A DNA stretch of 64,000 nucleotides from an uncultured Methanosarcinales archaeon (GCA_964637115.1 CAZWVL010000007.1:13041-77040); one strand, 5' to 3'. Numbered from the stretch's first letter, positions 32,533 through 46,790 are shown. Notes: generated by a model from the sequence alone, not told the origin. Program-made: numbers and translations.

Positions 32533-32649
32533 CGGGCCGGACGGGAATGTCAACCATGGGCAGGAAGCCCATGACTTTTGAACCCGTGACCATCCGCTTT
32601 CTCTCTTGCGATAAAAGGCGGATGCTCTACCAGACTGAGCTACCGGCCC
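32533..32649 (-). tRNA. tRNA-Lys (anticodon UUU) with two introns: 13 nt at 37/38 and about 30 nt in the T-loop
   Basis: Minus strand reads GGGCCGG-TA-GCTC-AGTCTGGTA-GAGC-A-TCCGC-CTTTTA[TCGCAAGAGAGAA]A-GCGGA-TGGTC-ACGGG-TTCA..[..GTCATGGGCTTCCTGCCCATGGTTGAC..]..T-CCCGT-CCGGCCC-G. All four stems pair. No encoded CCA. Confidence 0.8.
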
Positions 32650-43878: not shown

Positions 43879-44547
43879 ATGAGCACAAACAAAAAACACC
43901 CATTTTCCCAACACCATCTCTATCTGCTAATTCTCAGCATTTTTTTATTCTGTTTTTTTGCCAAAATAACTGAAGATGTCATGAATAATGGGTTCTTTAC
44001 TAAATTTGATTCGTTGGTGAGTACGAAAATAGTTTTGCTCTGGAATCCTGTGCTTACAAAAATAATGGTGTTCATCACAAATATCGCCAGCACTCCTAGT
44101 TTGTTCATTCTTTCACTCACGTTTTTGGGCGTGCTCGCATACAAGAGAAAATGGCGTGATTCCTTGCTCTTGATATGTGCACTGGCTGGCACACGGATAT
44201 TGGAGCTGCTTACAAAATTCATGGTCCACAGAGCGCGACCGGAGAATGCATTGATTGAAGTTTCTAACTACAGTTTTCCAAGCGGGCATGCAGCAATGTC
44301 AATCGTTTTCTTTTCACTGCTTATCTATTCATTTAAGGACGACATCAAAAATAAAATGTTCAAGAATTTTTTTATAACCGCTAATGTATTCTTATTCATA
44401 TTGATAGGATTCAGCAGGATTTACCTTAATGTCCACTGGTTGAGCGACGTGCTGGCAGGATTTGCCCTCGGGTCATTCTGGCTCACCTTAATGATCCTGA
44501 CTTTTCAATCAGTAATTGCTCTCGCAAAAAAGACTTTCCCTTCCTGA
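43879..44547 (+). CDS. PAP2-family (polyprenyl-diphosphate-type) phosphatase
   Basis: KFMVHRARP, PSGHA, SRIYLNVHWLSDV: the three PAP2 motifs. Confidence 0.85.
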   Translation: MSTNKKHPFSQHHLYLLILSIFLFCFFAKITEDVMNNGFFTKFDSLVSTKIVLLWNPVLTKIMVFITNIASTPSLFILSLTFLGVLAYKRKWRDSLLLICALAGTRILELLTKFMVHRARPENALIEVSNYSFPSGHAAMSIVFFSLLIYSFKDDIKNKMFKNFFITANVFLFILIGFSRIYLNVHWLSDVLAGFALGSFWLTLMILTFQSVIALAKKTFPS

Positions 44548-44560
44548 AAAACTGGAAAAC

Positions 44561-44604
44561 GGCTCCTTCTTGTTTGCCGGTCTAAATCTTGAAATACGCC
44601 GAGG
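44561..44604. repeat. 44-nt copy (36/44 identical, ungapped) of the tRNA-Asp 3' end plus its downstream flank
   Basis: ggctccttcttgtttgccggtctaaatcttgaaatacgccgagg versus 46153-46196 agctccttttcgattgccagtctaaatcctgaaaaacgccgggg. Confidence 0.8.
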
Positions 44605-45108
44605 CTACTTCAAAAGCTCCTTAGCCTTTTGCAGATAGAACAGGTCCCTTTTAACTATAAACTTGCCATTATACTCATCGGGCCTTTCGTTCTTAAGCAG
44701 CTCTATTGCTTTATCAATTGACACCCAAACAAGTTTAGCCCCTTCTTCAATTTCTTCCTGAGTAAATTCCGGCTTGCCTTCCTTGACAACCTCTGCAAGA
44801 AAACAATGCGACGTTTGAACCATATCCTCGTGCGTGCGGTGCTCAATAATCTCACCCAGTTCACCAATCACACGAACAGAACAACCAGTTTCCTCCTTGA
44901 TTTCCCTGGCAAGCGCATCAGGAATGCTCTCGCCGGAATCAACACCGCCACCTGGCAGCTTATGGTATTTGTGTTTGCTAATATGAAGCAAAGCGATAAG
45001 ACCCTTATTCATCATAACTGCCCTGGCAGCAGTTCTAGGAATATGCTTAGAATCCTCTTTTGGCTTCACACCAACATCAACATCACTGAGTTCAAGAATG
45101 GTTTTCAT
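44605..45108 (-). CDS. Nudix hydrolase
   Basis: Nudix box GGGVDSGESIPDALAREIKEETG. Confidence 0.85.
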   Translation of the reverse strand: MKTILELSDVDVGVKPKEDSKHIPRTAARAVMMNKGLIALLHISKHKYHKLPGGGVDSGESIPDALAREIKEETGCSVRVIGELGEIIEHRTHEDMVQTSHCFLAEVVKEGKPEFTQEEIEEGAKLVWVSIDKAIELLKNERPDEYNGKFIVKRDLFYLQKAKELLK

Positions 45109-45114
45109 AAAATT

Positions 45115-45134
45115 AAAACGCCGGGGCCGGGATT
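45115..45134. repeat. 20-nt exact copy of the 3' terminal 16 nt of tRNA-Asp plus 4 nt of trailer
   Basis: aaaacgccggggccgggatt is identical to 46185-46204. Confidence 0.9.
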
Positions 45135-45208
45135 ACTTGCGAAGTGCGCTTCGCAAGTTGCTCGGAAATCCAAAGGATTTCCGACATGAACCCGAGGGTT
45201 CAAATCCC
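45129..45208. other. 80-nt element predicted to form a four-way junction (closing stem plus three perfect hairpins); strand and function unknown
   Basis: GGGATT(45129-34)/AATCCC(45203-08); ACTTGCGAAG-tgcg-CTTCGCAAGT (45135-58); CGGAAATCC-aaa-GGATTTCCG (45163-83); TGAACC-cgag-GGTTCA (45187-45202). Confidence 0.6.
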
Positions 45209-45347
45209 CTTCACAAAATAGTGCAAGAGCTTCGCTCGAAACATACGCCGTTGTGTTTACTGTTCTGGCTTTTTAATCTTTCTGGATGAGCCGTGCATTA
45301 CAATTTCATTACATATCTCAAAAAGCGGGCAAACACCCTAAGAAAAG

Positions 45348-45734
45348 GTGAAGAGTTTTGCGATTAAGTTTGGCAATATTTATAAAGAAAATCATTTTTA
45401 TGAGTTTTCAATGGGACGTCTCGTAAAAACTCAGGATTGGGAGAGCCGAGCGATTGTAAGTTTTTTGGGCGGATACAGCATAACACAACAAGCTTTTAAG
45501 GCAGACTTTGAAACAAAGCGAGGAAAATTTTACGTGCTTATTTGGGCAGATCTAGACCGACATGAAATGGTTATTAATGATCGTTATAATATAGAAGCGT
45601 TGCAAAAGGCGTGCAGTCAAAATGCGTTTGTACTGATTTCTGAATTGTTCCCGAAGGGAAGCAAAATAATAACTTCGTATAATGAGATTAATGATGTTTT
45701 GGCAAAAATTGCAGATATCATAAAAGAAGAATGA
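45348..45734 (+). CDS. Hypothetical protein, 128 aa (GTG start; start uncertain)
   Basis: ORF with ordinary composition. No motif and no clear TATA at the standard distance. Confidence 0.45.
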   Translation: MKSFAIKFGNIYKENHFYEFSMGRLVKTQDWESRAIVSFLGGYSITQQAFKADFETKRGKFYVLIWADLDRHEMVINDRYNIEALQKACSQNAFVLISELFPKGSKIITSYNEINDVLAKIADIIKEE

Positions 45735-45985
45735 TTGCTCATACAACCTTTAGGAACAATTCCGGATTGCTTGCCAGGCTTATCATGGATATGCGATATT
45801 AACCTAATAACCTCTAGTTTGTTGAGGGGTGTTCTACAGGTCCAATTTTTACTGTTCTTACCAAGCTTAGTTTTTTCTTAAAAATTTGCGCGAACCGGTA
45901 CAAATCCTGAAAAGAATTTTACTTTCATTTTATTTATAAATGAAAGTTGTTGCCGGTTCAAATCCTGTTTTGCAAGGATAGATTT

Positions 45986-46099
45986 ATGAATTTCGCTCAC
46001 AACTTGCTTTCCGAAATTGCCAGAATGGTGCTGAGAGGCGCTATTCCGGCAAAAACAATGCAAGAAAGTGATTTGGCTAAAATTTTGAGAAAAAAATGA
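45986..46099 (+). CDS. Possible small ORF, 37 aa
   Basis: MNFAHNLLSEIARMVLRGAIPAKTMQESDLAKILRKK, 46 nt downstream of the palindromic TATA 45933-45940. Preferred over the antisense 124-aa track ORF on composition only. Confidence 0.2.
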   Translation: MNFAHNLLSEIARMVLRGAIPAKTMQESDLAKILRKK

Positions 46100-46188
46100 C
46101 AAGAAAAACAAGCTCAGAAAAGACTTTTTTCTTACCTGAACGGCCGGCAAACAGCTCCTTTTCGATTGCCAGTCTAAATCCTGAAAAA

Positions 46189-46261
46189 CGCCGGGGCCGG
46201 GATTTGAACCCGGGTTGCAAGCGCGACAGGCTCGCGTGCTAGACCACTGCACTACCCCGGC
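46189..46261 (-). tRNA. tRNA-Asp (anticodon GUC), intron-less
   Basis: GCCGGGG-TA-GTGC-AGTGGTCTA-GCAC-G-CGAGC-CTGTCGC-GCTTG-CAAC-CCGGG-TTCAAAT-CCCGG-CCCCGGC-G, followed by TTTTT. Confidence 0.9.
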
Positions 46262-46287
46262 AGCAGTTTTGAGAGGGAAACACGTGG

Positions 46288-46295
46288 TTTATAAA
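46288..46295 (-). promoter_or_regulatory. TATA box (tttataaa) 27 nt upstream of the tRNA-Asp 5' end
   Basis: Implies a TSS about 4 nt before the mature 5' end. Confidence 0.65.
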
Positions 46296-46331
46296 TGTTA
46301 TGCGAGAATAATATACTGAAGAAAAGAGAAA

Positions 46332-46790
46332 TTACTCTGCGAACTCGTCTTCCAGATAAGCGAATCTGCAGGACGGGTCTGGCTCGACATCATCGGCAGG
46401 AACACGCACGGGCTGTTTGCTGGTTAGTCTCTTCCTCTCCACTGACTGCGGGTCATTCAAATAATTAACAATTCTTCTCATAGCGGTTTCTGAACCGCCC
46501 TCCACAGAAACCTGGTCTCCATTGCCTAACATGACCTTCGCGTGGTAGCCATACCTGCCGCCATAATTTATCGTCAATGTGGCCTCTGCAAGCGTACCAA
46601 CATTCGTTGCTTTCACGCTCAACACGCTGCCCTTAGTAGATTCTTCAACAATGCAGCCTAAATCATCTGACTTTTCCATAATGCCCAAAAATGCAGCAAT
46701 GCTTCCGCACGAAACGTTATTTTTCGGCTTTAACAAGCGCCCTTCTTTTGAGAAATCGTACGTTACAGTATCCAACCCAGTTATGCTCAT
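46332..46790 (-). CDS. Hypothetical protein, 152 aa
   Basis: ATG at 46790 is 6 nt after AGGTGA. No motif recognised. Confidence 0.6.
   Translation of the reverse strand: MSITGLDTVTYDFSKEGRLLKPKNNVSCGSIAAFLGIMEKSDDLGCIVEESTKGSVLSVKATNVGTLAEATLTINYGGRYGYHAKVMLGNGDQVSVEGGSETAMRRIVNYLNDPQSVERKRLTSKQPVRVPADDVEPDPSCRFAYLEDEFAE

Follow-up and report, generated by a model that had tools for sequence, protein, structure and literature searches.

Within the window analysed here, a stretch of 64,000 nt taken from one strand of an uncultured archaeal genome, positions 45129-45208 fold into a compact four-way junction, and the question raised by the locus is whether this structure belongs to an RNA gene, is what remains of a tRNA gene, or arises from repeated DNA. 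The host genome (G000), which we take to belong to the Woesearchaeota (DPANN), is a small metagenome-assembled archaeal genome with tRNA introns. As set out in a preliminary description of the locus, GGGATT (45129-34) pairs with AATCCC (45203-08) as a closing helix and encloses three hairpins (45135-58, 45163-83, and 45187-45202), and all of these helices and coordinates were confirmed. In RNAfold predictions for 45129-45208 the junction is both the minimum free energy and the centroid structure of either strand, with energies of -42 kcal/mol (plus) and -43 kcal/mol (minus), corresponding to z = -6.8 and -7.7, and none of 200 dinucleotide shuffles folded as stably. The predicted structure additionally pairs 2 bp (TG/CA) across the 4- and 3-nt linkers. 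On the minus strand the junction runs directly into AATCCCGGCCCCGGCG-TTTT, which repeats the end of tRNA-Asp(GUC) exactly over 20 nt, and the corresponding repeat AAAACGCCGGGGCCGGGATT is found at 45115-45134 and 46185-46204. The minus-strand reading offered earlier, a tRNA-Asp T-arm and 3' end (TCGGG-TTCA / AAT-CCCGG-CCCCGGC-G) with a T-loop interrupted by a 52-nt insertion, is accurate, and the distance from the T-run (45118-45115) to the ATG of the Nudix gene (45108) is 6 nt rather than the 8 nt first counted. The junction is real and non-random, and it is a composite of repeats rather than a dedicated RNA gene. We consider it probable that it is the single-stranded folding product of two nested repeated pieces of DNA and not an RNA gene.

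All parts of the locus lie on the minus strand and are described here in that direction. The arrangement is anchored by an intact tRNA-Asp(GUC) gene (46188-46262; ARAGORN; Rfam RF00005, 65 bits), the last 16 nt of which, together with TTTT, form the first copy of the repeat (46185-46204). Directly behind it an insert of about 945 nt, designated E1 (45242-46187), separates the tRNA from a hairpin module of 107 nt (45241-45135). The 5' spacer of the module (45209-45241) resembles, by sequence comparison, that of a tRNA-Pro module on contig C21. Next comes a 13-nt inverted copy of the tRNA-Asp T-arm (45196-45208), with the minus-strand sequence GGGATTTGAACCC as the reverse complement of GGGTTCAAATCCC in the tRNA, and this copy supplies one strand of the closing helix and one strand of hairpin 1. 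A direct copy of the T-arm 5' half, TCGGGTTCA, extends up to A57 (45187-45195); the T-stem 5' strand of this spare copy is TCGGG, not CCGGG. Two further hairpins follow, namely hp2 (45159-45186; TGTCGGAAAT-CCTTTGG-ATTTCCGAGCA), which is dispersed and conserved in sequence, and hp3 (45135-45158; ACTTGCGAAG-CGCA-CTTCGCAAGT), in which the base ACTTG..CAAGT is conserved and the interior is variable. The second copy of the tRNA-Asp 3' end (45115-45134) comprises the T-loop AAT, the 3' strands of the T-stem and acceptor stem, the discriminator, and TTTT. A Nudix hydrolase gene (44605-45108; Pfam PF00293, E = 1.9e-16) is a neighbour outside the module, and it is followed by a third, older remnant (44521-44605) consisting of GCCTCGGCG and then an E1-type left end (repeat D2, 74-80% identity). 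The 9 nt of GCCTCGGCG are spelled like the tRNA-Asp 3' end of the congener G357 and unlike that of their own genome. The order is tRNA-Asp, E1, module, 20-nt copy, Nudix gene, and remnant. None of the sequencing runs listed as containing the sequence is an RNA run. The arrangement was checked in metagenome contigs from four DNA runs of two sediment studies; the module and the Nudix gene are contiguous in one 12.5-kb contig with 0 differences, and no excision product or empty-site joint skipping the module was found in the contigs of the four runs.

The explanation favoured here involves two layers. The first is a T-arm foldback at the far border of the DNA inserted behind the intact tRNA-Asp, made up of the 13-nt inverted T-arm copy followed by a direct T-arm and tRNA 3' end, the latter representing a duplicated or displaced target. 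The second is a gene-less 52-nt two-hairpin unit situated between A57 and A58 of the spare T-loop. The inverted copy pairs with both halves of the split T-arm to form the closing helix and hairpin 1, and the unit contributes hairpins 2 and 3. There are hardly any unpaired bases at the junction because the inverted copy pairs with both T-arm halves and the unit adds two hairpins of its own.

Several of the readings suggested earlier treat the junction as RNA. That of a tRNA-like non-coding RNA is unsupported because there is no Rfam match on either strand; scans of the window and of 44400-46400, at gathering score and with E <= 10 admitted, gave no match at 45100-45250 in either orientation to a tRNA or any other family beyond a single marginal one, HIV-1 DIS on hp3 (E ~7). 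The suggestion of a disrupted or split tRNA 3' half lost its support because a 5' partner is lacking both nearby and elsewhere in the genome. As had been remarked for the immediate surroundings, no matching 5' acceptor strand is present, and nothing within 600 nt upstream on the minus strand pairs with CCCCGGC. The motif GCCGGGG has 21 sites in the genome and continues into a D-arm only at the real tRNA-Asp, and no second tRNA-Asp 5' part is present in the 1.27-Mb, 98%-complete genome. An acceptor stem built from 5' and 3' ends, as in a tRNA, does not exist at 45129-45208. A split tRNA 3' half of the Nanoarchaeum or Caldivirga type was rejected, as the sequence preceding the 3' piece consists of self-complementary hairpins and there is no 5' half, and a permuted tRNA was rejected on account of the missing 5' half in the genome.

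A related proposal, that the locus is the relic of a second tRNA-Asp gene with a T-loop intron, or of the 3' half of a split tRNA, and has since lost the 5' part, draws on the presence of genuine T-loop introns in this genome. The tRNA-Lys(UUU) gene (window ~32545-32649, minus strand), missed by both ARAGORN and Rfam, contains an intron near 37/38 and a second in the T-loop (ending GGTTGAC), the latter being kept in the congeners G357 and G387 with a changed sequence. A tRNA-Leu gene, also missed by standard tools (G000 C1:41458-41575, plus strand), has a 32-nt T-loop intron of similar style (..CCGAAAGGTTGAC/AAT). The comparison with the tRNA-Lys intron made in the preliminary description was thus right in that the T-loop intron is real, but its site is 1-2 nt off in the loop and its sequence is unrelated. 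The true T-loop introns are 28-32 nt long, end in GGTTGAC, and share nothing with hp2 or hp3. The T-arm half at our locus is preceded by an inverted T-arm rather than by tRNA sequence, the 5' half is found nowhere in the genome, and G357 has a single tRNA-Asp with an empty site. On inspection of the folds, no bulge-helix-bulge could be drawn at TTCA/TGTC or CAAGT/AAT; the unit junctions lie at helix ends, without 3-nt bulges around a 4-bp helix. Removal of the insert at 45129-45208 leaves only a T-arm and a 3' end, which is not what an archaeal tRNA intron leaves behind.

A further observation in favour of such a relic comes from two other loci, in the genome G127 and at the metagenome locus L166, where a complete tRNA-Ser gene is split at TTCA^AAT by hp2 and hp3, the same position as in the spare tRNA-Asp T-loop. 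In both cases the loop of hp3 holds an entire, intact tRNA-Ser gene with the same anticodon as the split gene and a different acceptor stem. Once the insert (167 nt or 156 nt) is taken out, ARAGORN recognises a full tRNA, and because a whole tRNA results, the inserts at G127 and L166 may be removed by RNA splicing. L166 also contains two further stranded 3' fragments, each preceded by an hp3 end. For the tRNA-Asp locus, taken together with the evidence above, descent from an intron-containing or split second tRNA-Asp gene is extremely improbable.

The layout of the tRNA-Asp module, on which the reading as nested repeats depends, recurs behind other tRNAs. On contig C21 an intact tRNA-Pro(UGG) is followed by a spacer, an inverted T-arm, a T-arm 5' half, hp2, hp3, and AAT with the tRNA 3' end, with the sequence CCGGATTTGAACC, TC, GGTTCA, TGTCGGAAAT.., ..ACTCGCGAAG-CATG-CTTCGCAAGT, and AATCCGGGCAGCCCCA-TTTT. 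The layout was sought in metagenome contigs by pattern matching, in 400 genomes of the order, and with a covariance model trained on eight members. Further examples were found at tRNA-Pro in the congener G357 and at L148, at tRNA-Ser(CGA) in L154, at tRNA-Ser(GCU) in L160 and L162, at tRNA-Glu in L151, and at tRNA-Arg in L147 and G045, and with different inner hairpins at tRNA-Ser in G108 and G028. The junction fold recurs in most of these members, the ..GGTTCA junction is common to every member of the family, and the Pro, Ser, and Glu modules have an analogous inverted copy that matches their own tRNA. The hp2-hp3 unit occupies one loop position in at least seven tRNA species, of which the T-loop is the only shared part. 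A 16-mer search of the 400 genomes yielded true T-loop members only in G357 and G127 and a lone hp2 in G145; a match in G132 lay within coding sequence and was left out. A 14-mer scan of wider genome contigs gave only chance matches in bacteria.

Covariation, which had been proposed earlier as a check on homologous loci, was detected in the alignment of eight members. There, 91.6% of cells are paired as compared with 81% in shuffles, and the covariation score of 0.242 (0.074 in shuffles) was reached by none of 500 shuffles and fell to at most 0.062 in a slid control with partners shifted by 1-3 columns. Ten pairs have double-sided changes, located in hp2 and hp3; these include five of the ten hp3 pairs, and the hp2 stem shows swaps of G:C/A:T and of T:A/C:G/G:C at two positions. 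In the closing helix and hairpin 1, one strand is the inverted copy of the other, so that pairing there is a consequence of the inverted duplication and provides no evidence of selection. The stems covary and belong to a repeat family, and the structure has therefore been kept or regenerated, though not as a unique RNA gene.

These compensatory stem changes, along with the very stable minus-strand fold, could also be expected of a functional structured RNA that would be transcribed from a TATA-like box, GATTAAAAAG, and would either serve the Nudix mRNA as its 5' leader or form a small tRNA-like RNA with GGCG-UUUU at its end. The box driving a lipoprotein gene on contig C2 is promoter-like and at the present locus points into the module, and a T-run follows the copy of the tRNA end. 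The plus-strand fold is equally good, however, no Rfam family matches, and the acceptor 3' strand has no partner. A leader specific to the Nudix gene, as suggested in the preliminary description, is not supported because equivalent modules precede unrelated genes at other loci (glucose/sorbosone dehydrogenase in L154, and others) or no gene at all, and the orientation of family members to neighbouring genes is not consistent. Clustering of proteins around 14 loci revealed no family recurring beside the modules; recurrent "ORFs" only overlap tRNAs. A function of the junction as a structured RNA is, on this evidence, decidedly unlikely.

The second of the proposed layers, the two-hairpin unit, is dispersed. 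The 52-nt unit (TGTCGGAAAT..ATTTCCGAGCA followed by ACTTG..CAAGT) lies exactly at TTCA^AAT of the spare T-loop. The strict hp2 pattern TGTC-N-GAAA-N..N-TTTC-N-GAGCA has 16 copies in the genome, and after almost every one comes another perfect hairpin, a variable one; copies are present in relatives and metagenomes as well. The preliminary description had named identical palindromes scattered as repeats as an observation that would refute it, and for the middle hairpin, a dispersed family of at least 16 copies in this genome, this proved to be so. Most copies of hp2 lie between genes, without a fixed orientation relative to their neighbours, and no hp2 hairpin with a large cargo loop was found. 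The junction covariance model gave 20 hits in this genome at E <= 1 and reached E <= 1e-4 in 21 of the 151 genomes sampled from the order, a count that includes an uninspected match in the unpublished G132, on which no other claim rests. At G000 C8:5265-5359 a 55-nt two-hairpin unit is present in an intergenic site that aligns uninterrupted in G357 and G387, and the unit therefore represents an insertion/deletion polymorphism within the genus. A sub-family of the form ccatCGGAAAT-N4-5-ATTTCCGaggtttt (G000 C2:64266, C3:10633, C3:40601, C9:26927, and C9:27168) consists of a hairpin and a T-run and is terminator-like; the CGGAAAT/ATTTCCG stem is common to hp2.

The first layer, the foldback, occurs in uninterrupted form behind tRNA-Pro in G159, where a 15-bp hairpin is formed by an inverted T-arm and a direct T-arm with 3' end, with no unit between them. 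Behind tRNA-Pro an inverted-T-arm-like motif, xGGATTTGAAC, is found in all six genomes of the family, which points to long retention at that locus and not to recurrent insertion, and so to an old age of some foldbacks. Inverted-target closing helices were seen at the tRNA modules and perhaps in an insert within a glycosyltransferase gene (GCTCAT/ATGAGC); none was found in a cassette of the rpo operon.

Duplication of the target accompanies these modules. Behind at least six tRNAs of the genome, 47-1050 nt of hairpin-rich DNA separate the tRNA from a 13-20-nt repeat of its own 3' end, which mostly begins at the AAT of the T-loop. In other genomes the tRNA-Asp site is empty behind a single tRNA-Asp (the congener G357), contains a different 70-nt hairpin module and a 15-nt duplicate (the congener G387), or contains a 58-nt module with a ~33-nt duplicate, 15 nt of which are trailer (G043). 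The duplicates follow the acceptor-stem spelling of each genome (GGGG, GAAG, or GAGG). Outside tRNA genes, a 161-nt insert with five hairpins, two of them of hp2 type, lies just inside the start of a glycosyltransferase gene (C8:~45630-45830; L003); it is absent in both congeners, and a 33-nt duplication of the gene start keeps the ORF intact. In the rpo operon the target duplication is 28 nt. The tRNA-Asp duplicates in G387 and G043, as against the empty site in G357, and the L003 insert resemble insertion with long target duplication, with no mobility gene; the 20-nt duplication at the 45129 locus is shorter than the 30-bp threshold applied elsewhere (PMC2853133).

Direct repeats of this kind are also what would be expected of an attR-type scar, left by a plasmid or virus that integrated into the 3' end of tRNA-Asp through a tyrosine or SSV-type integrase, with the hairpins as attP arm or core sites and the 20-nt repeat as the att core. 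The region 45129-45208 is indeed att-like because it borders the DNA inserted behind tRNA-Asp; on the far side of that DNA the tRNA 3' end is directly repeated from the T-loop on (exact over 20 nt), the site is empty in G357, and TCGGG in place of CCGGG in the copy is a difference that an element-derived arm might show. Repeats of tRNA fragments around integrated elements of archaea are well known (PMC3293823; PMC2853133). To this extent the earlier suggestion of a recombination (att arm) site stands; the recombinase it calls for was not found. No match to the tyrosine-recombinase family PF00589, the one recombinase family covered by the search, and hence no XerA-type enzyme, was detected in the whole 98%-complete genome, and the same family was recovered in 14 of 14 reference genomes used as a control. 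Cargo-less modules of 47-185 nt stand behind at least six different tRNAs of the genome, and hp2-hp3 units are also found at non-tRNA sites. Integrases normally need 15-50 nt of att identity, whereas hp2-hp3 units occur at a single loop position in tRNA species that share only the T-loop, and the repeat follows the acceptor-stem spelling of each host. An integrase scar is accordingly regarded as unlikely.

Transposases were likewise sought. Y1 transposase and TnpB (PF01797, PF07282), the only transposase families covered by the search, had no match in G000. Y1 genes are present in three of five copy-rich relatives (G069, G117, and G075), and in these three genomes no hp2 or hp3 lies within 1.5 kb of them. 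A link to IS200/IS605 is not supported on either ground. In the absence of a match to any of the three families searched (PF00589, PF01797, PF07282), it might be supposed that no mobile element is involved and that replication produced the hairpin-rich inserts and their duplicated targets at palindromes, the T-arm among them, by switching templates or by fold-back synthesis. The duplications are long and differ in length (14-33 nt at tRNAs, 33 nt at the gene start, and 28 nt in the rpo operon) and inverted target copies are present, both in keeping with such a process, which would nevertheless leave unexplained a 28-nt hairpin of the same sequence in 20 families of the order and the units with a foreign tRNA allele. 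Template switching without any element is therefore judged very unlikely. A finding that counts against a mobile-element view is the strong divergence of hp3 from copy to copy, which a recent mobile burst would not usually leave; this divergence fits long-term structural selection, and hence function, equally well.

On a larger scale the junction lies about 1 kb into a strain-specific island. In G357, tRNA-Asp is followed after ~200 nt by tRNA-Lys(UUU) and rpoH, and in G000 13.4 kb (46187 to ~32798), including the Nudix and PAP2 genes, separate tRNA-Asp from tRNA-Lys. No clean copy of the tRNA end was found at the distal island border. A tandem cassette array with one tRNA-end copy per gene was rejected, as the island contains only two good copies and one 9-nt remnant. 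The ends of E1 recur behind a second, different tRNA, tRNA-Ser(GGA) on contig C2 (C2:153400-155022); by blastn, window 45814-46213 is 91% identical over 400 nt to C2 153771-153374, and window 45242-45353 is 96% identical to C2 155022-154911. The middle of E1 differs, encoding a 128-aa ORF here and a 355-aa ORF on C2, which are unrelated to each other and have no Pfam match. The motif CCRGTNYAAATCYTG occurs four times within the inserts behind tRNA-Asp (44577-44591, 45895-45909, 45953-45967, and 46169-46183) and is T-arm-like on the plus strand, thus inverted relative to tRNA-Asp. At the right end of E1 the TATA-like box lies ~30 nt before 45244, and on C2 that box lies ~30 nt upstream of the ATG of a lipoprotein gene (glucose/sorbosone dehydrogenase). 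The stretch shared with E1 on C2 ends in ..ACGGCGT-ATG, a tRNA-Ser end remnant followed by the start codon of the lipoprotein gene.

How the nested repeats came to lie in T-loops can be addressed with less assurance. The unit family would represent small insertion elements of this archaeal order (Woesearchaeota, DPANN), part of which lands in tRNA T-loops, and versions carrying a replacement tRNA in hp3 would be able to split a working tRNA gene. Insertion of a tRNA-less unit into a working tRNA gene would presumably be lethal, such that tRNA-less units would survive only in spare T-arm copies and their survival would reflect selection. The units probably move as DNA, and the folded hairpins or the junction, probably in single-stranded DNA, may be recognised by a putative enzyme supplied in trans. 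The ends of IS608 and the attC sites of integrons are recognised as folded single strands. As a tentative and rather doubtful extension, the hp2-hp3 units could form a T-loop-homing class of Woesearchaeota, moved in trans by a putative enzyme that recognises single-stranded hairpins or the four-way junction, with full copies bringing a replacement tRNA, and together with the foldbacks they could make tRNA 3' ends the assembly points of strain-variable islands without an integrase.

Each of several known systems shares some features with the modules. Integrative elements that target tRNA genes leave repeats of tRNA fragments, an archaeal case being that at tRNA-Thr of Caldiarchaeum (Sugahara et al., 2012; PMC3293823). 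As with these elements, module DNA lies beside an intact tRNA and is bounded by a partial tRNA copy, and relatives show incoming DNA that supplies a working tRNA and leaves fragments of the old one stranded, with a stack of them at L166. The modules differ in that no recombinase gene (PF00589) was found in or near them or in the genome, in that inserts are as small as ~50-190 nt (~160 nt for the units in split tRNAs), and in that one family occupies a single loop position of many tRNAs with a border that includes an inverted target copy. Palindrome-associated transposable elements (PATE), which are relatives of IS200/IS605, and MITE and REP sequences serve as a second comparison (PMC3119063; PMC3733652). 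The hp2-hp3 units are similarly short, gene-less, two-hairpin elements, mostly intergenic, with many dispersed copies, conserved ends, and presence or absence at orthologous sites of close relatives. Unlike them, the units have neither a Y1 transposase nor TnpB in the genome nor one linked in relatives, they lack the GTAG/CGTC heads of REPs, their hp3 sequence is almost fully variable yet forms a perfect hairpin, and one subfamily is T-loop-specific and can carry a tRNA.

Insertion with long target duplication was described for bacterial restriction-modification genes with repeats of 30-400 bp, as recounted by a later study (Nobusato et al., 2000, as cited by Furuta et al., 2010; PMC2853133), and no archaeal case passed the screen reported there (PMC2853133). 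Long and variable direct duplication, lack of a recognisable mobility gene, and an interrupted gene that stays intact are shared with the present modules; here, in contrast, hairpins or small islands make up the cargo, and a fixed point in the T-loop marks where the duplication begins. Non-canonical tRNA introns, including some in the T-loop, and intron transposition are known in archaea (PMC4090602; PMC4033280). The modules likewise interrupt the T-loop, with related inserts at an equal position of different tRNAs, but no bulge-helix-bulge was found, the interrupted copy has no tRNA 5' part, and the real T-loop introns of this genome are unrelated. Like integron attC sites, the modules are imperfect palindromes at gene-cassette borders that would act as folded single strands; unlike them, they come with no IntI-type integrase and no R/L boxes, and rather than one site per cassette there are only two good copies and one remnant in the 13.4-kb island. 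No description of the hp2-hp3 family was found in the open literature searched, and the T-loop two-hairpin layout behind DPANN tRNA genes seems to be previously undescribed.

DPANN archaea have tiny genomes and few recognisable mobile-element genes. Even so, a strain-specific island of 13.4 kb occupies the tRNA-Asp site of G000, and many of its tRNAs and gene ends have hairpin inserts. If the proposal is true, a gene-less hairpin family that lands in T-loops, sometimes with a spare tRNA, would explain the seeding of such islands and also the breaks at tRNA genes in metagenome assemblies of these organisms. What the modules yield, pieces of tRNAs and folds resembling a cloverleaf, can pass for novel RNA genes or for split tRNAs. 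Assemblies do seem to break at tRNA-linked repeats. Six of 54 contig ends (C2, C8, C10, C18, C21, and C23) lie within ~100 nt of a tRNA gene, and on C3 a 100-N gap follows tRNA-Ser(CGA) directly before a copy of its 3' end. A second module family was noted behind tRNA-Asp in G387 (L136) and behind the tRNA-Pro module of L148; it has the stem-enclosed form ..GGGGTTCRAA-GGGGNC..GNCCCC-TTGGTAT.. and resembles a T-arm with a hairpin like that of a T-loop intron.
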